From an uncultured Bacteroidales bacterium (GTDB lineage: Bacteria; Bacteroidota; Bacteroidia; Bacteroidales; Paludibacteraceae): a DNA stretch of 64,000 nucleotides. The notes under the pieces are model-generated. The model was not told the DNA's origin. It ran no database searches and saw only the letters and a list, made by a program, of their open reading frames with translations. The position numbers were made by a program, and so were the translations under genes. Positions 28,324 to 46,668 of the stretch are shown piece after piece (positions within the stretch are counted from its first letter, which is position 1; the number at the start of each line of letters is the position of its first letter). Where the stretch lies: NCBI GenBank assembly GCA_946414805.1, contig CAMKPZ010000002.1:302617-366616 (forward strand). The letters are read 5' to 3'.

Positions 28324-30399
28324 TTAGTTCCGGAATTTCAGTTCGCCGTCCCTAAGTTCTACGATGATCGGTTTGCTCTGACTCACCTTGCCGGCGATGA
28401 TCGCTTTGCTCAGTTCGTTGAGTACCAGCCGTTGCAGGGCGCGTTTGACAGGCCGTGCGCCGAACTGCGGATCATACCCTTCTTTCGCGATATAATCGAT
28501 CGCGTCGTCCGTCACGCGCAGGTCGAAGCCTTCGCTCTCCAGCATCTTGTGGATTCTGCTTATCTGGAGCCCTACCACCGCGCGGATGTCGTCCTGACTC
28601 AGTTCGCTGAAATGGATGATCTCGTCGATTCGGTTTATAAACTCCGGTCGTACGGATGCCCGCAACTGCTCTTCCGTCAGATTGGAGGTCATGATGATGA
28701 GCGTGTTCTTGAAGTTCACCACCCGCCCCTTGTTATCCGTCAGACGGCCGTCGTCCAGCACCTGAAGTAGGACATTGAAGACATCCGGATGGGCTTTCTC
28801 TATCTCGTCGAAGAGCACAACCGAGTACGGTTTGCGCCGGATCGCTTCGGTCAGCTGTCCGCCTTCATCGTATCCTACGTATCCCGGAGGCGCACCGATC
28901 AGACGGGTGGCGCTGAATTTCTCCTGATACTCGCTCATGTCGATCCTCGTGATCATGTTCTCGTCGTCGAAGAGATAATCGGCGAGGGCTTTTGCCAGTT
29001 CGGTCTTACCGACGCCGGTGGTGCCGAGGAAGATGAAACTGCCGATCGGTCTTTTGGGATCCTGCAGTCCGGCACGGCTACGGCGGATAGCGTCGCTCAC
29101 CGCTTCGATCGCTTCGTTCTGACCGATGATGCGCTTATGCAGTTCTTCCTCCAGATGGAGCAGTTTGTCCCGCTCCGATTGCATCATTTTCGCTACCGGA
29201 ATACCCGTCCAGCGTGCCACTACTTCGGCTATATCGTCTTCGTCCACCTCCTCTTTGATGAGCGGAGAACTGACTGCTGATTGCTGATGGCTGAGGGCTT
29301 CCTGCGCCGCTTTGATATTCGTCTCCGCGGCAGGGATCCGGCTGTAACGGATCTCCGCCACCTTGCCGTAATCGCCTTCGCGCTCCGCTACCTCCGCCTC
29401 GTGTTTCATCTGCTCGATGAGCGCTTTCTCGTTCTGGATGGTGGCTACATAGCCTTTCTCCTTGTTCCACCGCGCGTTGAGTTCCTCGCTCTTGGCTTTG
29501 AGTTCTGTCAGCTGATTGCTGATGGCTGAAAGCTTCGCATCGTCCTTGTCCCGCTTGATCGCTTCGCGCTCGATCTCAAGCTGCTTGATCTGACGGTCCA
29601 GGCTGTCGATCTCTTCGGGTTTGGAGTCGACCTCCAGCCGCAGTTTGGCTGCTGCTTCGTCCACAAGGTCAATCGCTTTGTCCGGCAGGAACCGGTCGGT
29701 GATATACCGTGCGGAGAGGGTGACAGCCGCGATGATGGCATCGTCTTTGATACGCACTTTGTGGTGCGTCTCGTAGCGTTCTTTCAGCCCTCGCAGGATG
29801 GAGATCGTAGCCGCTTCGTCCGGCTCGTCCACCATCACTTTCTGGAACCGGCGCTCCAGCGCCTTGTCGGTCTCGAAATACTTCTGGTACTCGTCGAGCG
29901 TGGTTGCACCGATCGCTCTCAGATCGCCTCTTGCCAGAGCCGGCTTCAGGATGTTCGCTGCATCCATAGCGCCGCTGCTCTTTCCGGCACCTACCAGCGT
30001 GTGGATCTCGTCGATGAAGAGGATGATCTCGCCTGCGGCTGCCACTACTTCGTTCACCACGCCTTTGAGCCGCTCTTCGAACTCACCCTGGTATTTGGCA
30101 CCGGCGATGAGCGCACCCATGTCGAGGGAGTAGATCTGTTTCTTCTTCAGGTTCTCCGGCACATCCCCGCGTACGATACGGTGCGCCAGACCCTCGGCGA
30201 TAGCGGTCTTGCCGACACCCGGTTCACCGATCAGAATAGGGTTGTTCTTAGTTCTTCTTGACAGGATCTGCAGCACCCGCCGGATCTCATCGTCACGGCC
30301 GATCACCGGATCCAGTTTGCCCTCCCGAGCCCGCTCACACAGGTTGATCGCGAACTTCTTGAGGTTCTCATTGTTGTTTTGGTTGTTCGTTGCATTCAT
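28324..30399 (-). CDS. clpB: ClpB-type AAA+ disaggregase lacking the N-terminal (Clp_N) domain
   Basis: Two Walker A loops ([18 protein letters not shown]). Long coiled-coil middle domain. [24 protein letters not shown] aligns with the start of NBD1 in E. coli ClpB as I recall it. 691 aa versus about 860 for full-length ClpB. ATG at 30399. Confidence 0.9.
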
Positions 30400-30574: not shown

Positions 30575-31540
30575 TCAACGAACGAAGTCAGAGATATTAA
30601 ATGTGCCGCTGATGGTCTGTGCTTCCGCCTTGCCGGATAGCAGATCGAAGAAGAATGCGCGAATCTCATCGAAAGTCAGTTGCTTCGGTTTGCCTTCCGC
30701 GTCAGTTCCAAAATCATATGTGCGTAGCAGCTGCGGTCCGAGAGCAGCGGCGGTGAGCAGGAAATGGTTCTGGAACTTATCGTAATCCACGAGATCAGCA
30801 GCCAGCACTTTTCCTACCACAGTGTAGCTATATAATGTCTTCTGCATGTGCTCATCGGTAAGGGTAGTGCGGATGGCATCTACCTCCAGGTTCATCTCTA
30901 TACGCCCCGAATCGGCGGATTGCGGTAGGCCGCGGTACATGGATCCCAAATCCGCCAGACTGAGATTATACATCTTCGTGCCCGGAACATAATGGATTTT
31001 CTCCACGGAGAAAGCCGTTGGAAGCAGCATTTGGATAGTCCCTTCGATCTGTACGCTTGGCGCGTTAAACGTACCGATAATACAATTATTCATATCCACT
31101 GATTGTGTGGCGAAGATGCCTCCGATAACTATGCAGTTCTCCAGACTGATCTCGTCCGCATAAATACTACCGGCCACAAACGCGTTCACGAGCGCCACGC
31201 TCTTGGCATTGATATCCGAATGGAAAGACACCCGGCATTTTCGTGCGCGCGAGACAACGGAAGAAGATGAAGCCACGCATTTCCGGAAGTCGATAGCACC
31301 TTTTGCATCTGTGTTGATGTGTAGTTCGCGCTGCGTGAATACGGCACCCTCAAAACGCGCATCGCCGCTCTGGATCTCCATCTGCGCAGCGTACACCGGT
31401 CCTTCGATGACACTATCCTCCTGGATCGTTACGATGCGGGTTAACTCTGCGATCTTGTTCGGTAGAATACCGCCTTTTACCAAATTGCCATTGAGCAATA
31501 TATTTGTCTCATTGATATGAGTTTCTTTTAACTTTTTCAT
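30575..31540 (-). CDS. hypothetical protein, predicted beta-helical repeat N-terminal half (bactofilin-like?)
   Basis: Repeated short beta-strand/turn pattern (VIEGPVYAAQMEIQSGDARFEGAVFTQRELHI…ISLENCIVIGGIFATQSVDMNNCIIGTF). ATG at 31540 is 4 nt after the upstream stop. The track start at 31567 is a TTG. Confidence 0.6.
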   Translation of the reverse strand: MKKLKETHINETNILLNGNLVKGGILPNKIAELTRIVTIQEDSVIEGPVYAAQMEIQSGDARFEGAVFTQRELHINTDAKGAIDFRKCVASSSSVVSRARKCRVSFHSDINAKSVALVNAFVAGSIYADEISLENCIVIGGIFATQSVDMNNCIIGTFNAPSVQIEGTIQMLLPTAFSVEKIHYVPGTKMYNLSLADLGSMYRGLPQSADSGRIEMNLEVDAIRTTLTDEHMQKTLYSYTVVGKVLAADLVDYDKFQNHFLLTAAALGPQLLRTYDFGTDAEGKPKQLTFDEIRAFFFDLLSGKAEAQTISGTFNISDFVR

Positions 31541-31544
31541 ACTA

Positions 31545-32558
31545 TTACAGGGAATAAAGTTTTGCAATTAGTTTTTTTACACGTTGTTCGTGCTCGTTTG
31601 CGGGAGTGGTTTCGTTGAGCATGTCCTGAAAATAGACAGACACATTCTCTTTCTCCTCGTCCGTCATCTCCGGCAGTTTTGCAGCTTCAGCTTTGTCCGT
31701 CAACATGCGTTTCCGATCCTCGGGCAGCATATCGTTCATAAAGATTTTGCTGTACTGCACATTGTGGTCATTCGTCATTGATGCAAAGCAGACAGGCGTG
31801 TAGAAAGTGCGTTCCGAGTTGTCATTGAGTTTGCAATGAGTGAGTGTGATCTCGGTAGCCAGTTTTTTGGACAGAAAACCGTTGGCTTCATGGAGCGCCT
31901 TTTGGGCATGCGTTTTGGCAATGGCGGTGCCAATCTGGGCATCGAGTAAAGTATTCTCTTTACCGGATAGCGCCACGATGTTGAGCATATCGCTTTCCAT
32001 AAACCGGTCTTCTGCTGCGTACATGTTCGCTGCTGTCACAAAGACCGGTTGGTCTAAAGCATGCACGCGATTGTCCAATTCTTTATTCAAATCATTGAAT
32101 ATCGTTGCGTATTGCTGGGCTTTGCGATGATAATCGCGCTCCATCTGTTGTCGCAGGGCAGTCAATTTTTTTTGTGACTCATGCATATCCAGCAGCAGTG
32201 CTTCCACGCGTTTCTGCAGTTCTACAATCTGGTTTGAGATGTCGAACCGGATGGTCTTGAAGAACCCTTCCACTACGGTGTCACCGATTTGCTTTGCTTT
32301 TGCCTTGATGCTTGCCACTTGCGCGGTCTCTGTAGCGATTACGCTTGTCGTCAGGGCGTCCACATGGTTGTTACAAGTGGCTACACTACGGTCGAAAGGA
32401 ACCGTATCCACCTCGATATCCACTTCCACTTCTTCTACGGCAGTGCCGCTATAATGGGCAGTACCGCTACCTCCGCTTTGGGAAGGACCGTACGAGTACG
32501 AGACAGTTCCTGAGTAAGGAATGCGTATCGTTTTTCTGTATGTTTGTCTGTAACTCAT
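31545..32558 (-). CDS. hypothetical coiled-coil protein, paralog of 32570-33475
   Basis: Shares the block QMERDYxRxAQxYxxxFNxLNKELxxRVxxLDQPVF (25 of 37 identical) and an upstream VDTxP…helical region with the neighbouring gene. No family recognised. Confidence 0.7.
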   Translation of the reverse strand: MSYRQTYRKTIRIPYSGTVSYSYGPSQSGGSGTAHYSGTAVEEVEVDIEVDTVPFDRSVATCNNHVDALTTSVIATETAQVASIKAKAKQIGDTVVEGFFKTIRFDISNQIVELQKRVEALLLDMHESQKKLTALRQQMERDYHRKAQQYATIFNDLNKELDNRVHALDQPVFVTAANMYAAEDRFMESDMLNIVALSGKENTLLDAQIGTAIAKTHAQKALHEANGFLSKKLATEITLTHCKLNDNSERTFYTPVCFASMTNDHNVQYSKIFMNDMLPEDRKRMLTDKAEAAKLPEMTDEEKENVSVYFQDMLNETTPANEHEQRVKKLIAKLYSL

Positions 32559-32569
32559 AAGCCTGGGTT

Positions 32570-33475
32570 TTAGATCGTTTGATAGGGGGTGGCTTTATCC
32601 ATTAACTGTAGGATCGTTCGTTTGACACGCTCGGGAATTTCCGATTCGGTCATGATGCGTACAAATTCGTTTTGCACATTCTCGTTTTTTGCCGCCTCAT
32701 GCCATGGCATAGAAGCCGCAGCTTGCATGAGTTCTCCTCGGATGAGTGAAGTGTTCTGATCGGATAGCAGCGCCTCACAGCTCGTCACTTTTGCAGACGC
32801 TCCCTGCTCAAAGCAACGCTCGGAGATTACTACCGGCATGTACAGTACTTTCGTCTCTGCTTTCTGATTGGAGAGGAGAATACGATTGGTCAATTCCTTC
32901 TGTTCCTCCATGCTCCCTACGAAAGACTGCGCGGCCTCAAGTACCTGAATGCCATGGTATTTGACATTCGATGCGAGGATCCGCTGTGCGTCCGTCACGC
33001 TCTCTGTCTGCCCGACAGGAATAGTGGCAGTAAGAGCGGTCATTCGGTTGTTGATCGTTTCCACTTCTGTCGTTGCGAACCGGAACACAGGTTGGTCCAA
33101 CTCCTGTACGCGCTGGCGCAATTCTTTATTAAGGGAATTAAACGTTTTGGTGTATCGTTGGGCAGTACGCATGTAATCGCGTTCCATCTGCCGCTTGATA
33201 TTCAGCAACTGCTTCGTCTGTTGGTTCAGCCGCATCAAATGCGAGTCCACTTCGCTCTGCAGTTTTGCAATCTTCTGCGACAGCGTAGAACTCATCAGCG
33301 CGTGGAAACCCCGGTTCACATCCTTGCAAACCTGATTGGCGGCTTCTTGATCCGCCTTGATGACTGCGGCCTGCATTGCTACTACTGCAGTGGTCGTGCC
33401 GGTGACATGTCGGCTGACAGAATGCAGCTCGTCGGCCATCGGTTGAGTATCAACTCTACAATCTATATATTGCAT
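32570..33475 (-). CDS. hypothetical coiled-coil protein, paralog of 31545-32558
   Basis: See the paralog entry. 11-nt spacers on both sides. Confidence 0.7.
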   Translation of the reverse strand: MQYIDCRVDTQPMADELHSVSRHVTGTTTAVVAMQAAVIKADQEAANQVCKDVNRGFHALMSSTLSQKIAKLQSEVDSHLMRLNQQTKQLLNIKRQMERDYMRTAQRYTKTFNSLNKELRQRVQELDQPVFRFATTEVETINNRMTALTATIPVGQTESVTDAQRILASNVKYHGIQVLEAAQSFVGSMEEQKELTNRILLSNQKAETKVLYMPVVISERCFEQGASAKVTSCEALLSDQNTSLIRGELMQAAASMPWHEAAKNENVQNEFVRIMTESEIPERVKRTILQLMDKATPYQTI

Positions 33476-33486
33476 AATACCCTCCT

Positions 33487-35778
33487 TTATTCATTGGTTT
33501 CATCCTCGGAAAGGACTTCTACTGTGGCTCCTAACTCCCGCAGAGCATCTGCAAAGGCATTGGCTTCTTCTTCGGTCAATCCGTCGCAAACAACCTCCGG
33601 CGCCGCATCGGCAATGTCTTTGGCTTCTTTGAGACCGGTGCCTAACCATTCTTTCAGTTCCTTCACAATAGATAATTTGTTAGGTCCTGCATCCTGGAGG
33701 AAGACCGTGTATGTACGATCCTCTTCTTCCTCTTCTTCCTCTTCTTCCTCTTCCTCTTCTTCCTCTTCTTCTTCCTCCTCCTCTTCCTTTTCTTCTTGGA
33801 TATCTTCCTCTTCATCTTGCAGTTCCTCTTCTTGCAGTTCCTCTTCTTGCAGTTCCTCTTCTTGCAGTTCCTCTTCTTGGAGTTCTTCCTTTTGCGAGAG
33901 TTCTTCCTCCTCCGGAATTTCCGGCTCTAACTCCTGATTCTCGGTAGCCGTTAACTCATCCAGCGCATTCTTTGCAATCATCGGCAGGTTCAGAGACAAG
34001 TGGTCAAAAACGATATCTTCCACCTGCGGGGTAGGTGGCAAGTCGGATTTTTTTGCCAGCAGAGGGTTCACGGCAGTCAGCGATTTGCGGCGGTCTTCCA
34101 TCTCACGGACTTCATTCGCGGCAATAGCCAACTCGTTGGAATGACCGTCTTGTAAACGTGCATCAAAATATTCGATATGTCCAAACTCCTCAGCACGCGT
34201 GTCAATATCTTCTTTCAGACGATCCATGTAATCCTCAAAATCATTCTGGACCTGCTCAAACTGTTTCGCCTGGGTCTCGAAAGCCAGCAGAGATTCGGCA
34301 CTATTGTCTTCAACAGATACAATACCGCTCTCAAGATCCTGGGATTGATTCATCGATTGCTGGGTTTTCTGCAACTGCACCAGCGTATTATACGCGGCTA
34401 CGTATTCACGCAGACTGCCCTGCATCAAGTTGATCAAATCAGCCGATTGTGCACGGTTGGACAGGTAGAAGTTGTCAGTGTCCTGATGCCATTTGTTGAG
34501 GTAAGAGAGTTTCTGGTCTTTAATATGATTATAGATCTTCAAACGCTCAATGCGGTTCTCCTGCATGAGTTTCTCTACCATTGGTGCTACAATCTCTTCG
34601 TAAATCTGGTGTACACCGAACGGCATAGTAGTCAAACTGCCGTCTTCCGCAGTCCATTGGTCGGTAATGAGGTTATAACGGACGCGTGAACTTTGCCGGA
34701 GCGTGAAAGGCTGATATCCCTGAACGGAATCCGAATAATCGAATTTCTCGTCGCGGATTCGTTGGATCTCTTCGGCTTCTAAAAGCGGAGAATAGTGGTT
34801 GTAGGGTGCCTTCAGAATCTTATAAAGAAGACTGTTCGAGGCGTTAACCAGCTTGTCCGTGCTTGATAATTTCAGCATGGAGATTGTTTGTACCGAGGTA
34901 GCCATTGTTTTCATGAGATCTTTCAGAACATCTTCGAATTGTTCGCTCTCGTTGCTTAGCGAGTCCTTGAGTTTATTAAGTTCCTCAAACTTGGCAATGT
35001 CGTCATTGTACTGGTCTTTATCGAAGATAGGTAGTACTATGGCATTTTTAGGCAGTTGCGAGGTGGTGTACTCATTGATATTCGCCAGACGGCTGCTATC
35101 GTCCGATACCAGCGGCAGCGAAACGGACGATGTGTCCAGATCATTCATGCAGTATGAAATGGTGCGCAACGAGCGATCCAGTTTACCGAAATAGTCATTC
35201 TGGTAAATCTCCTGCATAGAGAGCGAATATTCGTCGGTCTCCACCGCTTCGGCTTCATTGGAGGTCTCCACTATCGGTGCTTCCGTATTCAACTGCTTGA
35301 TCTCCTCAATGGTGTTGCATAGCAGTTCATTCTGACGGCTCATCTGCAGTGTGACTTGGGATTTAGGCACCTGACCTGTGTAATCAACGATAAAACTCTT
35401 GTCTTCATATTTGATTTGGTCCGCAATCGGTACGTAAACGACACCGAGTTTGTTCACCTTGTAGTCGCGGAATATCTCTTCGTGCTGCTTGCGGAATTCT
35501 CCGATGCGTGTTTGCAGGTCCGCTATCTGTTTCTTGTACTTGTTCTTCCGCACCCAATACATGAAAAACAGTATAATGGTGAAAAACCATTTCCAGCAGT
35601 TGGAAGCCTGTGCTTCGATATCACGTTGCTTGGATTCAAGGGAAGCGATCTCTTTCTCTATGCGCTCCTCCTCGTGTACAATCCGCTCTGCGGCTTGCTG
35701 ATAATACGAGAACAATACCTTGGCTTCATCCTGGTAGATATTGCTCGATTCTTGAAAAATTTTACCTGTAGTTGCCAT
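33487..35778 (-). CDS. membrane-anchored coiled-coil protein with poly-acidic linker and C-terminal ribosomal L7/L12 C-terminal-domain-like module
   Basis: 763 aa. One TM helix (CWKWFFTIILFFMYWV) after an N-terminal coiled coil. Long helical middle. EEELQ x5 and poly-E tract. C-terminus is YTVFLQDAGPNKLSIVKELKEWLGTGLKEAKDIADAAPEVVCDGLTEEEANAFADALRELGATVEV. Confidence 0.8.
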   Translation of the reverse strand: MATTGKIFQESSNIYQDEAKVLFSYYQQAAERIVHEEERIEKEIASLESKQRDIEAQASNCWKWFFTIILFFMYWVRKNKYKKQIADLQTRIGEFRKQHEEIFRDYKVNKLGVVYVPIADQIKYEDKSFIVDYTGQVPKSQVTLQMSRQNELLCNTIEEIKQLNTEAPIVETSNEAEAVETDEYSLSMQEIYQNDYFGKLDRSLRTISYCMNDLDTSSVSLPLVSDDSSRLANINEYTTSQLPKNAIVLPIFDKDQYNDDIAKFEELNKLKDSLSNESEQFEDVLKDLMKTMATSVQTISMLKLSSTDKLVNASNSLLYKILKAPYNHYSPLLEAEEIQRIRDEKFDYSDSVQGYQPFTLRQSSRVRYNLITDQWTAEDGSLTTMPFGVHQIYEEIVAPMVEKLMQENRIERLKIYNHIKDQKLSYLNKWHQDTDNFYLSNRAQSADLINLMQGSLREYVAAYNTLVQLQKTQQSMNQSQDLESGIVSVEDNSAESLLAFETQAKQFEQVQNDFEDYMDRLKEDIDTRAEEFGHIEYFDARLQDGHSNELAIAANEVREMEDRRKSLTAVNPLLAKKSDLPPTPQVEDIVFDHLSLNLPMIAKNALDELTATENQELEPEIPEEEELSQKEELQEEELQEEELQEEELQEEELQDEEEDIQEEKEEEEEEEEEEEEEEEEEEEEEEDRTYTVFLQDAGPNKLSIVKELKEWLGTGLKEAKDIADAAPEVVCDGLTEEEANAFADALRELGATVEVLSEDETNE
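33490..33711 (-). other. L7/L12 C-terminal-domain-like module (domain of the 763-aa protein)
   Basis: By-eye alignment to E. coli L7/L12 CTD (recalled as [67 protein letters not shown]) gives about 28 of 67 identical positions, including AGxNK, GxGLKEAKD, AP and GAxVEV. Confidence 0.8.
33719..33890. repeat. GAA/GAG-rich tract plus 15-bp tandem repeat x5 (33816-33890) encoding the poly-E and EEELQ linker
   Basis: CTTGCAGTTCCTCTT x4 perfect plus one diverged unit, read directly. Confidence 0.9.
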
Positions 35779-35798: not shown

Positions 35799-36497
35799 TT
35801 AATTCATTATTTGTTTGCGTTGCGCGAGGGTGCGCTCCAGACGGGCTATCAGCGCGTGAATTTCCTGCTCTTCCGTCTTCCTGTGCGGAAGGGCGATTGC
35901 AATCTCATGAGCGAGGCGTATAAACTGTTGCTCCAGTTCTACCGCTTCTTGTTTGTCAGAAGGCGTTATATATCGCAATTGGTCTGTGATTCCGTTCAGG
36001 GCACTGCGGATATCCGCCGGGATGTCCGTTCCGTCGGCTAAAGCGTTCTGTAGCTGGTCCACTACTTTTTTCATCTGCTCTCGACCGGCCAAGGCGTTTT
36101 TCTCTTGCGCTGCTACAGCGCTGGCTTTATGCCCTGCAGCCGTACTGAAGACCCAGGCAAAGAGCAGAATCCCCAGCAATCCTCCTTGTCCCAGAACCTG
36201 GTATATAAAGGCGCATTCATATATGCCGGCAGCCACGCCGAACCCAACGGCCAGTACCATGTATGCTAATTGCCCCTGCCAGCGGATACCTATACTTGCT
36301 ACTTCCGGCGCATGATCGCTATCGCTGATGATCGGGCAATATAGATCATAGCAGATAAGCGCCCAAATGATACTTAGCACTACCGTGTCTAAGATCATTA
36401 TATCTTGTGCCAAACCATGAGGCAGCAGAAGCATCGCACTAATGATGAAGGCTTCACCTAAAAGTGCGAGAAGGGAGGTTAAAATAATTCGTTTCAT
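35799..36497 (-). CDS. hypothetical 4-TM membrane protein with cytoplasmic helical C-terminal domain
   Basis: Four hydrophobic helices in residues about 5-125, then a roughly 100-aa helical tail (…QEKNALAGREQMKKVVDQLQNALADG…ARLERTLAQRKQIMN). No family recognised. Confidence 0.7.
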   Translation of the reverse strand: MKRIILTSLLALLGEAFIISAMLLLPHGLAQDIMILDTVVLSIIWALICYDLYCPIISDSDHAPEVASIGIRWQGQLAYMVLAVGFGVAAGIYECAFIYQVLGQGGLLGILLFAWVFSTAAGHKASAVAAQEKNALAGREQMKKVVDQLQNALADGTDIPADIRSALNGITDQLRYITPSDKQEAVELEQQFIRLAHEIAIALPHRKTEEQEIHALIARLERTLAQRKQIMN

Positions 36498-36524: not shown

Positions 36525-37772
36525 TTATCTGCGTTGACCACAAACGGGACAGAACTTATCCCGAGGCTGTAACTGTGCTCCGCAGCGGCTGCATACATTC
36601 TCGTCGGCTATCGGCGCACGTGAGCCGAAAGAACCTGCTGCCAGCGGAGTGCCGCAGGATACACAGCGTCTGGCATGATCGGCGTTGTCCGTTCCGCATC
36701 TGGGGCAGGGATTGTATTTATGGCCGCAATGAGGGCAAAAGGCCTGATTGGATTTATATTTCTTTGAGCAAGCCCCGCAATATATATCGCGTACTACGGC
36801 GGCATTCCCGGCATCTATCAATCCGGCGGCATTAGCGTTTCCGGAACCGCCCATTGCAGGCTGATTATAGGCAGGCTGCATCATCCCTGCTCCTACACCG
36901 CCCATTCCTCCTGCCATTCCGCTCATCATCTGGACAGCCATCAATCCGCCTAACAATCCACCGCCGTTTCCTCCCATGTTGCTGAAACCGTCGATGGCAT
37001 TATTCGCGGTGCCAAACAGCTGTTCCTGCTGCCATGTGCGACCCGTGATCTTCTGGGCTGCCTGCTGTGAGATGGCCTCGGCTATTTGTCGACCTTCCGC
37101 TGTCGTCTTATCGATCTCTATTGAATTGACATAGAATTTCGTCAACTCCAAGCCCATATTGGTCCAGAAAGGAGCCAACTGTAGTTGCAGATCAGCACTA
37201 AGCCTGTCTAAGAATGCGGAGATCTGCATGAAGCCGATTTTATTTATCAGCATGTATTGCAAAATCAGTGATTTCGCTTTCGAGCAAATTTCTCCGTATG
37301 ACTGATTGGTCATATTTTCTTCGGTGAAGGTGTAATGAGTTCCTACAAAATTGATGATGAATTTCTCTGTATCCACAATCCGGAGACCATATTGCCCCAT
37401 TGCTATCAATGGCAGTTGCGTTTTGTAATCCTCGTCGAAATAGGGAAGACCTGTCAGACTCCAGTCAATGGCAAAGGTCTGTATTTTATTTACAAACCAT
37501 ACTTCGGCGGTGAAGGGATTCTCTCCCCCGAATGGAAATCCATACAATGTACGTAGGATAGGTAAGTTTTCTGTCTTTAACTGGTGTTTCCCCGGACCGA
37601 ATTTACCGATCAATTGCCCTTTTGAGAATAATAAAGCCTCCTGGCTCTCATGTACCAGCAGTTGCGTAGCGGTAGACAGGTTACGCTCGGGATGGTGATA
37701 CGCATAAATCACTTCATCTCCCTGCGGCTGCCATTGTACGACATCAATGATTGGTTTGCTAAATAATCCCAT
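36525..37772 (-). CDS. SPFH-domain protein (COG4260/YdjI-like) with Gly/Met-rich linker and three C-terminal zinc ribbons
   Basis: N-terminus MGLFSKPIIDVVQWQPQG… and the following ~270 aa resemble the virion-core-protein-like SPFH family. Linker GGNGGGLLGGLMAVQMMSGMAGGMGGVGAGMM. Ribbons CGACS-x11-CPHCG, CPRCG-x10-CVSCG, CSRCG-x10-CPVCG. ATG at 37772 (track start 37817 is non-ATG). Confidence 0.75.
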   Translation of the reverse strand: MGLFSKPIIDVVQWQPQGDEVIYAYHHPERNLSTATQLLVHESQEALLFSKGQLIGKFGPGKHQLKTENLPILRTLYGFPFGGENPFTAEVWFVNKIQTFAIDWSLTGLPYFDEDYKTQLPLIAMGQYGLRIVDTEKFIINFVGTHYTFTEENMTNQSYGEICSKAKSLILQYMLINKIGFMQISAFLDRLSADLQLQLAPFWTNMGLELTKFYVNSIEIDKTTAEGRQIAEAISQQAAQKITGRTWQQEQLFGTANNAIDGFSNMGGNGGGLLGGLMAVQMMSGMAGGMGGVGAGMMQPAYNQPAMGGSGNANAAGLIDAGNAAVVRDIYCGACSKKYKSNQAFCPHCGHKYNPCPRCGTDNADHARRCVSCGTPLAAGSFGSRAPIADENVCSRCGAQLQPRDKFCPVCGQRR

Positions 37773-37814
37773 AGTAGTATTAAGAATTAGATTGAGTATT
37801 AGTATTAGACGCCG

Positions 37815-37846
37815 CAAAATTACTATTTTTTTATGAATTATGCAAA
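37815..37846 (-). promoter_or_regulatory. Bacteroides-type promoter of the SPFH/L12-fusion operon
   Basis: On the minus strand: TTTG (37846-37843), 20-nt spacer, TAATTTTG (37822-37815). The -7 box is 42 nt upstream of the ATG at 37772. Confidence 0.7.
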
Positions 37847-38104: not shown

Positions 38105-38812
38105 TCATTTTTTTGTGTTTTTCTGCTTTTTCAGGTTAAAAAGGCGGTAATTGTACCATTTTTTATCCTCAAAACGGTGCAGAACAGCGTAAGCGACGAC
38201 CGAAACAAAGATGCCGACAAGTATTCCTCCGAAAACATCCATTGCGAAATGCTGGCTGAGGTAGATCCGGCTGTAACCTCCCAATGCTGCCAGAACGAAA
38301 AGAAGGATCTGTATAAGACCGGTGGTTGGTGATCGGTGACTGGTGGCAGGCGAAGTGAGAAGAACGCACACGACAAACGCCAGCGAGAAGAAAGAGGTGG
38401 TGTGACCGGAAGGGAAGGAGAACCAAGCGTTCATCCGCACGCCTTCGACGAGCGGCAGTTGGACATCCGGCATGTTGGCAGCAAACCAAGTGACAGGTCG
38501 CGGAGCATTGATGATATGTTTGGCAATCTGGGTAGTGAGAGCGCTGCCGAGCATACAAGCGCAACCGAGCACGCCGTTGCCGATACGGCTGAAGAGAAGC
38601 AACGCAATGCATACGAGATAAGGAAACCACTCCGCTACCGTGGTATAATACCTATAGAATATATCGCGTGCGGGCGTGTGACGATCGCATAAGAGCAGAT
38701 GCAACTCGCCTTTCGGGATACATATAAGCGCTAAGCCCAATACTCCGAGGAGTATCAGGCTTAGCGTCAGAAAGATCTTGTTCTTATTCCACACGTTGGC
38801 CATAGACATCAT
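38105..38812 (-). CDS. PAP2-family phosphatase (membrane)
   Basis: All three acid-phosphatase motifs are present: KHIINAPRP, PSGH, SRIYLSQHFAMD. Confidence 0.88.
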   Translation of the reverse strand: MMSMANVWNKNKIFLTLSLILLGVLGLALICIPKGELHLLLCDRHTPARDIFYRYYTTVAEWFPYLVCIALLLFSRIGNGVLGCACMLGSALTTQIAKHIINAPRPVTWFAANMPDVQLPLVEGVRMNAWFSFPSGHTTSFFSLAFVVCVLLTSPATSHRSPTTGLIQILLFVLAALGGYSRIYLSQHFAMDVFGGILVGIFVSVVAYAVLHRFEDKKWYNYRLFNLKKQKNTKK

Positions 38813-41570
38813 AGGTCTTATCGCCCATGCGGATCACGATGCGGTTATTGCGCATAATCTTCTGCGCCGGTGCCTGAGTGGTTGTGGGGTGATAATCCGG
38901 CGTTTTATCGATTATCTGCGAACAAGAGGGCAGAGCGAAGCCGCTCTTATCGATGAACACGACATATACCTCGTCATTGATCTCAAAAGAACCGCCGTGG
39001 TGATAAACCGACTGGTTAGCGCCCTCAATCGCTTCGCCGTTCAGATACCATTGGAAGGTATAGTCTGCCAAATCGTAGTATGGATTGTTCTCCGTTCCTT
39101 TCTTATAGACGGCTAAGACATTGTTGAATTTGTACTTGAAGATATCCTTGGGGTAATAGATATCAAAGTCAACAGGGAAGACGAGCGAGTCGCAATAGTA
39201 ATCATCGACGATAAGCGCTCCGTGATACCGTCCGGCTTTCTTAATCGAATAAGTCGGAAGGGACAGGGAGACAGGACTCAGATGGTTGTCATTCGGGATC
39301 GTCACAGCTTCGTCAATCAAGCCCGGCACCACGAAACGGGCAGAGGCGATCGTTCCTTTCGTTTTCGTGTAGGAGACTTCTACTTCTTTGCCCGGACAGG
39401 CGTGCTGCTGCTCGATAGTATTGGAGACATCCATTCCCAGACAGGTGATAACGGATACGCGGTATTTGCGGTAATGGTTGCAGAACGCATCATTGAGCAG
39501 CGTGTCCACTACAACCGTATCGGAGTAGTACATCTTGCCAAATACCTCAATACTGTCCCGTCCCTCGAAGTCCGGCAGCGTCTCTTCGGTCTCCAGACCA
39601 TAGACCACGCGATAGATATATACGGTGTCCCAGCAGGTCTTCTGGACGACGGAGTCGGATCCGAACTCAATGAGCGAATCGCAGTAATGCGGGTCCGCTG
39701 CATACTCCTCAGGCGTGAAACACTCGTGCATGGCACCGGCTACAACGGTGTCCGGACGAACGATACGGAAGGTGAAGGTGACGGTTTCCTCGGGATAGGT
39801 TGTCGCCGGACAATCCTTATGCGCCGAGATACGCGCTTCCACGGTGTACCAGTTCGGGGTAGAGTAAACATGTTTGGCTTCGATACCTTCTTCGCGGGTG
39901 GTGGTAGCGGTTGTACCGTCTCCGAAATCCCAGACCACCTTGTCAATGACATCGGTACCGATTTGCGGATTGAAGGTCAGTTCGTCGTCAATACAGAAGG
40001 GTTCGTCTCCCCAGTCTTGGTCAATAAAGCGTTGTCCGCCTACCTCGACACCGCGTTTGATGGTACTGGAGCCGACGGTGTAAGCATAACTCTCGTCGTC
40101 GCCGTTACCATAGACGGTAGCGATAAAACCATGCTTGCATTTCAGCTGGTAGAAGGGGTTGGGAGTGCCTGAAACCGTATGAGGCAGCGAGATGCGCGCA
40201 TAGTAGTAATCGGGGTTACTCTCTACGGGCCTGAAGAAGGATGCTAAAGGTTTGTCCATCATCGTTGCCTCCGAGACACCGGCTTTGGGCACAATGATAT
40301 TCACGAAATGGCGGTCGGTCTTGGTCGTTCCCATCACGCCGAATACGACTTCGTTCATCATCTGCTCGATCGGTGCAATCCAGGTCATAGCCGGAGCTCC
40401 CCAGTATGATTCCTTGTCGTCGCCGGGCTTCTTCGTATGATATGTCTCGATACCCGCATCTTTGCGGTAATAGCCGTTTCCCACATCGTATGAAAGTACG
40501 GCGCACGGGCAAGACGCTTTGATATAAGCCGTGCTGTCAAGGATAGTGATACCGGAGAAAACTTCCCGTTTGCTGTCCCATCTGCCATTCTCATAACCGG
40601 CGGACATCTCAAACTCGTATGATTGACCGGACTTGAGTTCGAAGGAGTAATTCTGCTTGATAGTATGGTCATCGTTTTTTGCCGCAGACGGATCATAGTT
40701 ACCATAAATGGTGACAGTGGTATTATCCTCTTGGGCGGTAATGATCACACGGTTGGCATCTTTCTCTTTGGATCGCACCACTACGAAATTCTGTCCCCAG
40801 TAATCAATAGGGAAGAGTTGCTCATACACCAAGTCCCTGTCAGACACATTATCCGGTATGTTCCCTAACGGACATCCGGCGAAAACAGCAATTTTCTTAC
40901 CATCTTTCGCCAGTATACGGCTACCGTTCAGAGAAGCCCCGTCTGCACTCTTGACATGATACACCTGTCCTGCCTTGAGGGATAAACCTTGAATGGAACC
41001 GGTCTTGCCTCCTTCGGTTTGTGCTGCCAGTGTGATATCCACCTCACAATCTTCTACCGCTAATACGGAGAATACGTTTTTCTTGATACCATCCTTGTTA
41101 CTCGGTCCGTAGGTCTGGACGATATATTCGCTCTGCAAGGCGGTGACCGGAAGGATATTGGTAGCATCCATACTGTAATTCCACCGCAGACAGGAATATA
41201 TGGACACTTCTTCCGTGGCTTCGACCTTCAGACCATTGTCTAACTCTCGCTCGGAAGCCGGCATGGAAGTGCTGTACCACTGATCGAGCGGAATATCCTT
41301 GATCTCCAACCAGGCATTGTCGTTAGCGATTTGGTATGTGTTTGACCAGCCTGTTTGCGGGTTAGACACACGAACTGCACATTTCTTCGGTGCACTGATG
41401 GCAATGTACGAGTCGAATCCATTGCTGGAAGGGCTTTCTCCGTCCGGCGATCTACTCGGGATGAGTGCTACCCAGAATTCCTTACCTTGCGTTGACGACT
41501 GGCTCCACGCGGGGATGCAGCTACTCGCAATAAATGCAATTAACACAAGTGATTTAAAGAATCGTTTCAT
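38784..41570 (-). CDS. large secreted surface protein, IgGFc-binding-like N-terminal region plus PKD-like domain; paralog of 43804-46560
   Basis: ATG at 41570 gives the signal MKRFFKSLVLIAFIASSCIPAWS; the track start at 41816 runs into the upstream gene. Blocks shared with the paralog: GKEFWVA, APAMTWIAPIEQ, HFVNII, YYYARISL, VYGNGDDESYAYTVG, VWDFGDGT. Short C-terminal tail …RIVIRMGDKTYDVYGQRVE. Confidence 0.7.
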   Translation of the reverse strand: MKRFFKSLVLIAFIASSCIPAWSQSSTQGKEFWVALIPSRSPDGESPSSNGFDSYIAISAPKKCAVRVSNPQTGWSNTYQIANDNAWLEIKDIPLDQWYSTSMPASERELDNGLKVEATEEVSIYSCLRWNYSMDATNILPVTALQSEYIVQTYGPSNKDGIKKNVFSVLAVEDCEVDITLAAQTEGGKTGSIQGLSLKAGQVYHVKSADGASLNGSRILAKDGKKIAVFAGCPLGNIPDNVSDRDLVYEQLFPIDYWGQNFVVVRSKEKDANRVIITAQEDNTTVTIYGNYDPSAAKNDDHTIKQNYSFELKSGQSYEFEMSAGYENGRWDSKREVFSGITILDSTAYIKASCPCAVLSYDVGNGYYRKDAGIETYHTKKPGDDKESYWGAPAMTWIAPIEQMMNEVVFGVMGTTKTDRHFVNIIVPKAGVSEATMMDKPLASFFRPVESNPDYYYARISLPHTVSGTPNPFYQLKCKHGFIATVYGNGDDESYAYTVGSSTIKRGVEVGGQRFIDQDWGDEPFCIDDELTFNPQIGTDVIDKVVWDFGDGTTATTTREEGIEAKHVYSTPNWYTVEARISAHKDCPATTYPEETVTFTFRIVRPDTVVAGAMHECFTPEEYAADPHYCDSLIEFGSDSVVQKTCWDTVYIYRVVYGLETEETLPDFEGRDSIEVFGKMYYSDTVVVDTLLNDAFCNHYRKYRVSVITCLGMDVSNTIEQQHACPGKEVEVSYTKTKGTIASARFVVPGLIDEAVTIPNDNHLSPVSLSLPTYSIKKAGRYHGALIVDDYYCDSLVFPVDFDIYYPKDIFKYKFNNVLAVYKKGTENNPYYDLADYTFQWYLNGEAIEGANQSVYHHGGSFEINDEVYVVFIDKSGFALPSCSQIIDKTPDYHPTTTQAPAQKIMRNNRIVIRMGDKTYDVYGQRVE

Positions 41571-41574
41571 ATGA

Positions 41575-43785
41575 TTATAATATTTCAATTTCCACGCGTC
41601 TGTTATTCTGACGGCCTTCTTCGGTGTCGTTGGTGTCAATCGGTTGGGTCTCGCCACGGCCTTCTGCCTCGATACGATCAGTTGCGATGCCGCGCTCGAC
41701 AAGGTCTTGCAGGACTGCATTCGCGCGTCCTTCAGACAACTTCCGGTTCGCTTCGTCTTTACCCACGCTGTCCGTGTGGCCGATGATCTTGATGCGTACT
41801 TGCGGGTTGCGCGCAAGATACATATAGAGGTCGTTGAGCGCTTCCTCGGAGGTCTTCAAGATACGTGTTTTGTTGGTGGCGAAATGGAGGTTCTTGATGA
41901 TAAAGACCTCACCTTTCTTAACCGGCGTGAGTTGCAGGTTCAGCGAGTCGCCGACAGACGCGATAGCCATCTCCAGCGAGTCGTAACCCATCTGGGCGAT
42001 CAAGAGGCGGTATTGGCCTTCCTCGAGTGCCTGACGCGCCGCACCGGAAGTGGAGTCGGTAGCCATTAGGTAAGCAGGCTCCGTCTCGCCGCGTCTGATG
42101 ATCCGGATATTCGCCGGAACGGGCATGCCCGTTTCCTTATTGGTTACGCGTACGCGGAAGACGGGCGTCGGCGTAAGACTGATAGCCAGACTGTCGGTAA
42201 CGCCGTATTCGTCAATCGTGAAGGGATAGGAGAGCGGTTTGTAACCGTCCATATTCACATTCGCGATATAGGAGCCTTTGAGGTGTCTCTGTCTGGTGGT
42301 CTTAGGCTGTTTCCTGCGCATCACTACTTTGCCGGTTTGCGAGTCTGTGGTCTCAACAAAAGCCTGTAGCAGCGACTCGCCGGTCTTTTCGTCTGCGATG
42401 TTGAAGACCGCGTAGGAAGGAGGTGGCGGCACAGGGCGTTCTTTCTTGCCCGGGATCTCAAACTGGATGGTGAATTTCGCGCCCACAAAGAGGTTGTTGA
42501 GCTTTGTATCCCCGTTCATGGCAAGCATGGTGTTGGTTTTCTGAACGAGCGTCTCTCCGGCGAAATCCACCGGATTGGCTTTCGGCGTAGCATTGGTGTT
42601 GAGCACTCCGTACTCGGCGAAGAGTCCTACGCGGTAATGCACGTGCTGGCGACCGAACGGCAGACGCTCACCGGCTTTGACTTTGGCTTTCTTTGCCTTC
42701 GGATCCGGTTGTTTCTGGAGCCATTCGTCGAGATCGATACCTACCTCGGCTGCGATACTGAGATCCGGTTGGCGGAACTTGATCGGCGCATCGGTGGGCA
42801 CTTTCTGTTCGGAGAGGTCATAGATACCTAATCCGTACGGCTCTAACAGGTTCGGGTCTTCCACCGTGACATCATATTTGCCTTTCTGGCTATAGCCCAT
42901 CGGCAGGCCGTAGTGAACCTTTGCGCCTACAAGGAAATAGTAACGGCTGAACTGCGCACCGAACATCAACGGAAGACCCACTTCGAACATGTTTCGTGTC
43001 TCGGAGAGGTTGTCGAAGAGATAGGTATAGGTAGCGCCGGTGGCGGTCTCTGTCTGTTGCGCTTGGAAACCGTAGGCGGAGGTGGAGTTCAGGAATCGCA
43101 GATCCAGACCGGTCTCAAAGAGGAAATGTCCGTATTCGAGGTTGTAGGTCAGATTCAGTCCTGCGCCTGCTCCGCCTTTGAGCTGCTGGAGGGCATTGCT
43201 CTGATTCAGCGTTCCGGCGCCCATATAACTGCCGTTGATCTTATCCATCATCGCGGCATAACCGAGACGCAGACCGAGATTGATATACGAGATTGCCTCT
43301 GTCTTCGGGTTCTCCAGCGATTCTTGATATTTCTCATAATCGCGGATCGCTTTCTGTTCGCGTTCCTCTGCTTCGGCAGCCTTACGGTCGCGCTCGGCTT
43401 GCTTGCGCTCCGCCTCTCTTTGCTTGGCCTCCATAGCTTTGGCTTTCTCCTGCGCTGCTTTCTCGCGTTCCTTGGATGCCGCTTCACGCTCTTTCTCTTT
43501 GGCGGCCGCGGCTTTTGCTTTTTCTTTGGCAGCCTGCTCTTTCTCTTTTGCCTTGGCGGCTTGCTCTTTTTCTTTCTCTTTGGCTTTGGCCTTGGCGGCT
43601 TTCTCTTTCTCCTTGGCTTTCGCCTTGGCCGCTTTTTCTTTCTCTTTGGCTTTCTGCGCAGCGGCTTTCTCTTTGTCCGTCTGCGTAGCAGGCGCAGGTT
43701 CCGGCATTGCGTTAGCTACTACCGGTGCGCCGCTCAGACTAAGGATCACACATCCGATCAAGAGGTAATATAACGTATTTTTCAT
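41575..43785 (-). CDS. OmpA-family protein with Lys/Ala/Glu-rich repeat region
   Basis: C-terminal OmpA domain (…HTDSVGKDEANRKLSEGRANAV…NNRRVEIEIL). Signal peptide. About 130 aa of KEKAAKAKAKEKEK-type repeats. Beta-rich middle. Confidence 0.85.
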   Translation of the reverse strand: MKNTLYYLLIGCVILSLSGAPVVANAMPEPAPATQTDKEKAAAQKAKEKEKAAKAKAKEKEKAAKAKAKEKEKEQAAKAKEKEQAAKEKAKAAAAKEKEREAASKEREKAAQEKAKAMEAKQREAERKQAERDRKAAEAEEREQKAIRDYEKYQESLENPKTEAISYINLGLRLGYAAMMDKINGSYMGAGTLNQSNALQQLKGGAGAGLNLTYNLEYGHFLFETGLDLRFLNSTSAYGFQAQQTETATGATYTYLFDNLSETRNMFEVGLPLMFGAQFSRYYFLVGAKVHYGLPMGYSQKGKYDVTVEDPNLLEPYGLGIYDLSEQKVPTDAPIKFRQPDLSIAAEVGIDLDEWLQKQPDPKAKKAKVKAGERLPFGRQHVHYRVGLFAEYGVLNTNATPKANPVDFAGETLVQKTNTMLAMNGDTKLNNLFVGAKFTIQFEIPGKKERPVPPPPSYAVFNIADEKTGESLLQAFVETTDSQTGKVVMRRKQPKTTRQRHLKGSYIANVNMDGYKPLSYPFTIDEYGVTDSLAISLTPTPVFRVRVTNKETGMPVPANIRIIRRGETEPAYLMATDSTSGAARQALEEGQYRLLIAQMGYDSLEMAIASVGDSLNLQLTPVKKGEVFIIKNLHFATNKTRILKTSEEALNDLYMYLARNPQVRIKIIGHTDSVGKDEANRKLSEGRANAVLQDLVERGIATDRIEAEGRGETQPIDTNDTEEGRQNNRRVEIEIL

Positions 43786-43803
43786 TGCTGTGCTCTCCTA
43801 TAT

Positions 43804-46560: not shown

Positions 46561-46600
46561 AAAGATTGATTTGTTAAATGTATGCGATCTAAATCGACTG

Positions 46601-46608
46601 CAAAGATA
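46601..46608 (-). promoter_or_regulatory. -7 promoter box upstream of the surface-protein/OmpA operon
   Basis: Minus strand TATCTTTG lies 40 nt upstream of the ATG at 46560. No clean TTTG at -33. Confidence 0.45.
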
Positions 46609-46668
46609 CAAACAATTTATTACGCGCGCGTGCATATTTCCGCGAAAAATGTGTAAAAATTGACACTC

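Follow-up and report, generated by a model that had tools for sequence, protein, structure and literature searches.

The C-terminal domain (CTD) of the ribosomal protein bL12 (L7/L12, encoded by rplL) is carried by a flexible linker joined to an oligomerizing helical part, and EF-G contacts this domain at V66–V68, K70, L80 and E82 (PMC5887453). The domain has also been described outside of rplL. In phages, bL12 domains lie within much longer polypeptides of up to 724 amino acids, at positions that vary (Mizuno et al. 2019, PMC6375957); homologues of these proteins specifically lack the domain, independent acquisitions were proposed, and the contacts to uL11, EF-G and EF-Tu are retained (PMC6375957). 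In addition, Ribosomal_L12 was tabulated in one cyanobacterial orthocaspase (PMC8283722). Here, we analyzed a stretch of 64,000 nucleotides (the window) from an uncultured Bacteroidales bacterium of the Paludibacteraceae (GenBank assembly GCA_946414805.1, contig CAMKPZ010000002.1, positions 302,617 to 366,616 of the forward strand). An open reading frame (ORF) on its minus strand (33487..35778) is translated into a protein of 763 amino acids that ends in a bona fide L12 CTD. An acidic disordered linker joins this CTD to the rest of the protein, which is non-ribosomal, helical and probably anchored in the membrane. This protein resembles the phage proteins in that the CTD belongs to a much larger non-ribosomal protein, in that many homologues lack the domain, in that multiple independent acquisitions can be inferred and in that the contacts are retained. 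Unlike the phage proteins, it is encoded by a cellular, chromosomal operon found across the order, and its CTD is terminal on a polyacidic leash.

The CTD covers residues ~690–759 of the protein (33502..33711, minus strand). The profile PF00542 (Ribosomal_L12 CTD) matches residues 690–755 over profile positions 1–66 of 67 (E = 1.3e-17; 64.3 bits; curated gathering cut-off: 25.9 bits). The top match of the protein among PDB sequences is 1ctf, the E. coli L7/L12 CTD (phmmer; E = 4.3e-11; ungapped), and a tblastn search with E. coli L12 as query yielded an identity of 42.4% (28/66) across residues 55–120. The same search found no second L12-like stretch in the window, which does not contain rplL. 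We modeled the protein with AlphaFold2 (AF2) using a family alignment of 46 sequences, and residues 690–757 reached a predicted local distance difference test score (pLDDT) of ~95. The modeled CTD superposes on 1ctf with a root-mean-square deviation of 0.8 Å across 67 residues (Foldseek; TM-score 0.94; 42% identity). ClpS, a known structural cousin, comes next after L12 with far weaker scores. A preliminary description of this locus, made by reading the sequence alone, had recognized an L7/L12 CTD at the end of the protein, aligned without gaps and with about 28 of 67 residues identical to E. coli; the profile match, the ungapped alignment, the tblastn count and the superposition all bear this out.

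We then compared the protein to bL12 itself. All of the 120 Bacteroides bL12 proteins that were retrieved contain both PF16320, the N-terminal domain (NTD) responsible for uL10 binding and dimerization, and PF00542, with a canonical length of 124 amino acids. PF16320 was not found in the 763-amino acid protein at E ≤ 0.1. The full-length bL12 equivalog TIGR00855 of NCBIfam scored 49.2 bits, below its cut-off of 84.4, and matched through profile positions 51–124 only. The gene is not surrounded by rplJ-rplL-rpoBC but belongs to an operon of six genes that starts with an SPFH protein, as it does in all 82 loci compared. The missing NTD indicates that this gene is not rplL and excludes a role within the ribosome. 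The protein and bL12 share the same CTD by profile, sequence and predicted structure, with conserved helix-4/5 residues, and both hold it on a flexible linker joined to a helical part. They differ by the NTD, by their size (763 and ~124 amino acids), by the membrane-associated core and by the linker, which consists of 72 polyacidic residues here and of a short Ala/Pro-rich hinge in bL12. The CTD is also more acidic, with a net charge of −8 relative to −2 in the CTD of bL12 (−4 to −17 across the CTDs of the family), and it is fast-evolving, whereas Bacteroides bL12 proteins are ~98% identical among themselves.

The linker (residues 617–688; 33715..33930, minus strand) is composed of 69% D and E over its 72 residues, with a net charge of −47 and a pLDDT of ~30, and is predicted to be disordered. 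It had been described as an acidic linker of roughly 60 residues, which is correct for its composition and slightly short for its length. At the DNA level, TRF identified a unit of 15 base pairs (bp) repeated 4.7 times at 98% within 33719–33895 and encoding EELQE, as well as GAA/GAG arrays of 9 and 24 bp. Across the family, tails are between 2 and 278 residues long. This spread and the near-perfect DNA repeats are consistent with replication slippage. An ORF of 327 amino acids encoding poly-Ser on the plus strand (32954–33937) was rejected as a real gene: it is antisense to the poly-Glu linker and to the last part of the downstream gene.

The charge of this tail also bears on the possibility that the CTD docks on ribosomes, for instance through the contact of free L12 CTDs with uL11 and the GTPase-associated center, and thereby holds ribosomes or 50S subunits at a membrane scaffold. 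Phage L12-domain proteins were reported to keep the residues that contact uL11 and to co-purify with 70S ribosomes (PMC6375957), and the long leash and a probably oligomeric helical core could provide avidity. However, the NTD, which is the only known stable attachment of bL12 to the ribosome, is absent, and tagged phage bL12 was unusable for affinity purification of ribosomes (PMC6375957). Moreover, the linker and CTD are so strongly negative that they would repel rRNA. We consider such a tether to be highly improbable.

The remainder of the protein is a conserved core (residues 1 to ~616; 33931..35778, minus strand), in which a short hydrophobic anchor (W62–V77) is followed by long helices and small beta units. 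Long helices are predicted at residues 14–102, 255–323, 409–478 and 493–570. The segment W62–V77 is the single hydrophobic segment of the protein; it is conserved in the family, is rich in aromatic residues and spans some 16 residues. In a 19-residue frame, its Kyte-Doolittle hydropathy peaks at 1.13, under the usual 1.6. It may represent a short transmembrane (TM) or an in-plane/re-entrant anchor, and the earlier suggestion of a single TM helix near the N-terminus is supported in part only. The motif RKNKYKK directly follows this segment. A basic cluster flanking a membrane segment marks its cytoplasmic side (positive-inside rule), which suggests that the large C-terminal part of the protein, including the CTD, lies in the cytoplasm. 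The protein is therefore probably anchored to the membrane and oriented toward the cytoplasm, judging from these sequence features and the positive-inside rule.

The first ~612 residues define an uncharacterized and strongly conserved family across Bacteroidales. The homologue search yielded more than 2176 core homologues, which align to the first ~80% of the protein with 57–91% identity, and PF00542 is present in a minority of them. In the family alignment, the ~612 residues of the core present a mean column identity of 60% and more than 170 invariant columns. We retained one genome per species, resulting in 79 species, and used 82 loci for the comparison of the operon. Across the loci of the 79 species, the core is 55–91% identical to the core of the window protein. 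The closest relatives are Paludibacteraceae and uncultured Bacteroidales metagenome-assembled genomes (MAGs) from rumen and gut (core identity of 91%). Further carriers of the core belong to the Dysgonomonadaceae, Rikenellaceae, Muribaculaceae, Barnesiellaceae, Bacteroidaceae and Marinilabiliales. Profile searches detected no relatives of the core in Pfam, NCBIfam, PADLOC or PDB, and the full-length model was matched by Foldseek through the CTD only.

We further analyzed the distribution of the CTD across this family. An L12 CTD is present in 7 of the 79 species. At least 20 species possess instead a helical module of ~40 residues, the HeH head, and the tails of the remaining species are solely polyacidic or consist of Pro-rich low-complexity sequences. 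One orthologue of 881 amino acids (L007, Paludibacteraceae MAG RUI460; L007:9008-11650) carries the L12 CTD twice in tandem, with a short acidic spacer in between, and a Muribaculaceae species (L061) carries a degenerate L12 CTD. Regarding the HeH head, a duplicated copy in P0095 matches the Pfam profile Rho_N (PF07498) with 35 bits (cut-off: 24.9), and the other tails score under the cut-off. The AF2 model of the P0051 tail contains three helices (pLDDT > 90), and in the PDB its top-ranking matches all correspond to the N-terminal helical subdomain of Rho (2a8v; probability 0.98; 1.6 Å; 45 columns), with SAP and LEM domains next. When mapped on a neighbor-joining tree of 201 core sequences, the presence of L12 requires at least nine gains or losses. 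L12 carriers and head-less proteins are interleaved in the window protein's own clade, and isolated L12 carriers are found in distant clades. These results show that the CTD does not define the core family and constitutes an optional, lineage-specific add-on.

The tails share one feature regardless of their head. A terminal -NE (DNE, NNE or TNE) is found in 39% of the 162 unique tails of the family, relative to 1.6% expected from composition, and it occurs with L12 CTDs, with HeH heads and with head-less tails. The window protein provides an instance of it: the CTD is followed by a short acidic C-terminal extension ending in -TNE (...SEDETNE; 33490..33510, minus strand; the terminal motif at 33490–33498). 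The tail thus continues past the CTD and closes with a conserved terminal motif. The -NE looks like a short docking motif at the terminus. A comparable arrangement is found in the archaeal and eukaryotic P-stalk proteins aP1 and P1/P2, whose flexible acidic tail ends in a short conserved element that recruits translational GTPases (PMC5887453). The parallel does not go beyond analogy: the two are unrelated in sequence, and the terminus of the P-stalk proteins is hydrophobic, unlike -NE.

The evolution of the CTD was then compared to that of the core. Since synonymous divergence is saturated and dN/dS (omega) is not estimable, we report ratios of nonsynonymous divergence (dN). Between the window protein and its three nearest relatives, dN is ~0.054 for the core and ~0.40 for the CTD, a ~7.5-fold difference. 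Orthologues with 82–91% identity in the core are just 54–55% identical in the CTD. The CTD of the window protein is 49% identical to bL12 of B. fragilis and 42% to that of E. coli. We discarded a recently duplicated host rplL as the source of the CTD given its 49% identity to Bacteroides bL12 and its identity of 54–55% even to the nearest orthologous CTDs. Nor is an origin from phages supported: phage matches are at most 45% identical, compared to 49% for Bacteroides bL12, and several of them resemble contamination by host rplL.

Despite this divergence, the contact surface of the CTD is retained. In the window protein, the contact residues are conserved or conservatively replaced (K65, L66, I68, V69, K70, K73, L80, E82 and K84). 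Across the 17 unique CTDs of the family, the contact residues are the best-conserved surface positions (K65 82%, L66 88%, V69 100%, K70 88%, K73 71%, L80 88%, E82 94% and K84 88%), and all the other lysines of bL12 (K59, K81, K95, K100, K107 and K108) have been replaced.

These patterns can be read in another way. The CTD is small, very soluble and folds autonomously, and it might have been shuffled as a passenger into a tail that is disordered, fast-evolving and prone to slippage. If anything keeps it there, it would be a general physical benefit, such as a folded end for a polyanionic brush, protection against proteases or spacing, and the CTD would have no specific ligand. This would agree with its sporadic distribution (at least nine gains or losses), with the occurrence of an unrelated HeH head or of no head in most species, with a dN 7.5 times that of the core, with the strong acidification of the CTD, which matches the tail, and with the existence of decayed copies. 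It would also agree with the promiscuity of the L12 CTD, which is found in plainly non-translational settings (dockerin, cleaved adhesin, fn3 and signal peptides). However, the decay is not neutral within the clade: four basic residues and E82 are kept at 71–94% and every other lysine is gone. The CTD has also been tandemly duplicated in one species (L007), and the proportion of nonsynonymous differences (pN) in the CTD is well under that of synonymous differences (pS), even where pS nears saturation. We consider this passenger reading to be possible but somewhat unlikely.

We extended the analysis to L12 CTDs outside of rplL in general. An exhaustive phmmer search with the CTD retrieved 5208 proteins at E ≤ 1e-3. 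Among the best 150 of these 5208, nearly all are non-ribosomal, with lengths of 136–1333 amino acids and 2–9 tandem L12 CTDs. A TIR domain is fused to L12 CTDs in 19 of the 122 proteins scanned with Pfam, and the other partner domains include KAP NTPase, PNP_UDP_1, LRR/LRV, Sel1, SPOR, dockerin and cleaved adhesin with fn3. An N-terminus resembling a signal peptide, as called by a simple heuristic, directly precedes the CTD in ~29 of the best 150 (e.g., P0142, P0153, P0159, P0181, P0186, P0210, P0231, P0241 and P0256), and dockerin or cleaved-adhesin/fn3 domains are present in some of these apparently exported proteins. Some tandem L12-CTD proteins (within P0121–P0270) carry a Ser/Thr kinase-like N-terminus or zinc ribbons. 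Separately, a hypothetical protein of the crAss-like phage cr126_1 from human faeces (NC_055884.1 / MT774391.1, 31112-31300) contains an L12-CTD-like stretch that is 39% identical to the CTD of the window. L12 CTDs outside of rplL are already known and common; the modular and sporadic distribution of the CTD in the core family, the abundance of such domains elsewhere and the phage precedent reduce the novelty of the present case. What is new is the architecture of this protein and the conserved operon of six genes in which it is encoded. The multi-copy proteins linked to TIR, LRR, KAP, adhesin or signal peptides are similar to the window protein in using the CTD as an add-on with the K65/K70/R73/L80/E82/K84 signature; they differ by their 2–9 tandem copies and their other partner domains, the CTD being here in single copy (two in L007) on a protein of an SPFH operon.

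The signature itself is widespread. Across 432 copies of the domain in non-ribosomal proteins, the same positions are conserved (K65 84%, K70 82%, R/K73 92%, L80 91%, E82 70% plus D 18%, and K84 85%), and entropy is above 3 bits at the remaining positions of the surface. The apparently exported subset keeps the contact residues just as strongly, and the contact residues do not therefore constitute specific evidence for the binding of GTPases. They represent a hallmark of the L12 CTD in every context, perhaps for structural reasons or for a ligand broader than the cytoplasmic GTPases.

The nature of the partner domains raises another possibility by analogy with the integrated decoys of immune receptors: the tethered CTD could mimic the ribosomal stalk and lure factors whose normal target is bL12 (proteins of phages, toxins or effectors that bind the stalk), which the membrane complex would sense or neutralize. 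Tandem L12 CTDs recurrently occur with TIR domains (19/122) and also with KAP NTPase and PNP_UDP_1, which are typical domains of conflict systems. The fast evolution and variable presence of the CTD are what an arms race would predict, phages do encode L12-domain proteins (PMC6375957; crAss-like cr126_1), and the structure of a stalk-binding CRISPR effector (8phj) is found among the fold matches. In contrast, a PADLOC scan for defense systems with the six operon proteins gave only weak and partial matches of coiled-coil type (E = 3.5e-5 or worse), and a scan of PHROGs for phage proteins gave no meaningful match. The operon encodes no effector domain and corresponds to a vertically inherited cluster of the core genome across the order rather than to a defense island. 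A role as bait appears very improbable.

The six genes of the operon are all encoded on the minus strand of the window and are separated by 27, 20, 11, 11 and −23 bp. Their order (SPFH with zinc ribbons, four TM segments, core, two paralogues, bactofilin-like) is collinear in essentially every locus that is long enough. The first gene (36525..37817) encodes an SPFH/Band_7_1 protein of 430 amino acids with C-terminal zinc ribbons (PF13421, E = 3.1e-33; Zn_Ribbon_1 and DZR) and is collinear in 74 of the 82 loci. The second (35799..36497; collinear in 70/82 loci) encodes 232 amino acids with about four N-terminal TM segments, based on hydropathy peaks, and a helical C-terminus. The core gene is the third. 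The fourth (32570..33475; 301 amino acids; present in 77/82 loci) and the fifth (31545..32558; 337 amino acids; assigned by homology and collinearity) encode paralogous helical proteins with 30% identity (E = 5e-29); a profile search against PDB sequences found no relative of the former. The sixth (30575..31567) encodes a strongly conserved protein of ~320–330 amino acids, found in 73/82 loci with 50–88% identity, that is weakly bactofilin-like: it matches PF04519 (bactofilin) with E = 1.9e-4 and 22.0 bits, under the cut-off of 27.9, and its profile matches Bactofilin A (PDB 2n3d) marginally (E = 0.068). With the listed TTG start, this gene and the one upstream of it share 23 bp. The family alignment starts at an ATG at codon 10 (MKKLKE...), which is probably the true start.

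We found no description of the core family or of its operon in searches of the literature on L12-CTD fusions, Band_7_1 and PF00542. A similar known arrangement is that of B. subtilis YdjI (PspA-YdjGHI), where an SPFH/Band 7 protein of the PF13421 type likewise shares its module with small membrane proteins and with helical partners associated with the membrane, and where zinc ribbons also occur. This resemblance concerns the architecture only: no PspA/IM30 domain was detected in the six operon proteins, and the helical partners present no detectable homology to PspA.

Downstream of the operon, a homologue of ClpB (28324–30399, minus strand; 691 amino acids) lacks the Clp_N domain and is 93% identical in L004–L006; the gap upstream of it is 175 bp, in which the N-domain would not fit. 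ClpB was rejected as a seventh member of the cluster: it adjoins the cluster in the three nearest genomes only. Just upstream of the SPFH operon (38784–46635, minus strand), two large proteins with IgGFc_binding domains (1010 and 943 amino acids) flank an OmpA-family protein of 736 amino acids. The rest of the window is ordinary chromosome, with DnaE, ArgS, an AcrB-type pump, a SurA-like protein and a TonB-dependent receptor.

Our preferred explanation is that the core family acts together with the SPFH/zinc-ribbon, four-TM, paralogous helical and bactofilin-like proteins. The domain content of these six proteins suggests that they would most likely form a membrane scaffold or microdomain complex on the cytoplasmic face, of which the 763-amino acid protein would be the large subunit. 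Its polyanionic disordered tail, driven by DNA repeats, would extend from the core into the cytoplasm, and it has gained, lost or swapped a small autonomous head depending on the lineage: an L12 CTD in the window and in Paludibacteraceae-like species, a Rho_N-type HeH, or none. The L12 head would be an accessory protein-interaction module on a flexible leash rather than the core function of the protein. Since it keeps the basic and acidic helix-4/5 surface that bL12 uses for translational GTPases, its likeliest specific activity would be the low-affinity capture, near the scaffold, of GTPases of the EF-Tu, EF-G or IF2 type, or of another partner of the same surface. We give about an even chance to this explanation as a whole, namely a scaffold with an exchangeable tail head whose L12 version is accessory and possibly catches translational GTPases or another ligand of that surface.

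Several observations weigh against it. Most members of the family do without the CTD, and an unrelated HeH head replaces it in others. Compared between the same genomes, the dN of the CTD exceeds that of the core ~7.5-fold, indicating that its overall constraint is weak, and the copies of P0024, P0021 and L061 are degenerate and lack the contact residues. The apparently exported CTDs (~29 proteins) keep these residues just as strongly. The hydrophobic anchor has fewer residues than a typical TM helix, and the AF2 model of the core is of low confidence (predicted template modeling score of 0.27). Finally, the scaffold function of the operon relies on weak or generic domain matches, and the bactofilin match is sub-threshold.

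The preliminary description had gone further and proposed a membrane-tethered mimic of the ribosomal stalk. The anatomy of the protein is compatible with it (a true CTD, an acidic leash and a probable anchor), but the support from the contact residues is weakened by their equal conservation in apparently exported copies. In its strongest form, the tethered CTD would be a functional stalk off the ribosome: multiple copies on long polyanionic leashes, borne by a membrane scaffold of the SPFH/bactofilin type, would capture EF-Tu, EF-G or IF2 at the membrane, locally concentrating or sequestering these factors or reporting their nucleotide state or abundance to the complex. An unrecognized class of sensors of translation factors would then comprise hundreds of proteins with L12 CTDs outside the ribosome, among them those linked to TIR or to kinases. 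This form of the proposal seems to us quite improbable.

These results have several implications for Bacteroidales and for the annotation of L12-like proteins. The annotation "ribosomal protein L7/L12", which JGI assigned to some proteins of the family, should be read with caution where function is concerned. If the CTD does not bind GTPases, this family would offer a clean natural case of head swapping (L12 CTD, Rho_N HeH or none) on a disordered tail driven by slippage. If it binds translational GTPases, it would represent the first cellular stalk domain working off the ribosome, connecting the translation apparatus with a membrane scaffold. It would then provide a handle on a six-gene SPFH operon that is found across the order in many gut and rumen species, and on the tandem L12-CTD proteins linked to TIR, LRR or signal peptides.

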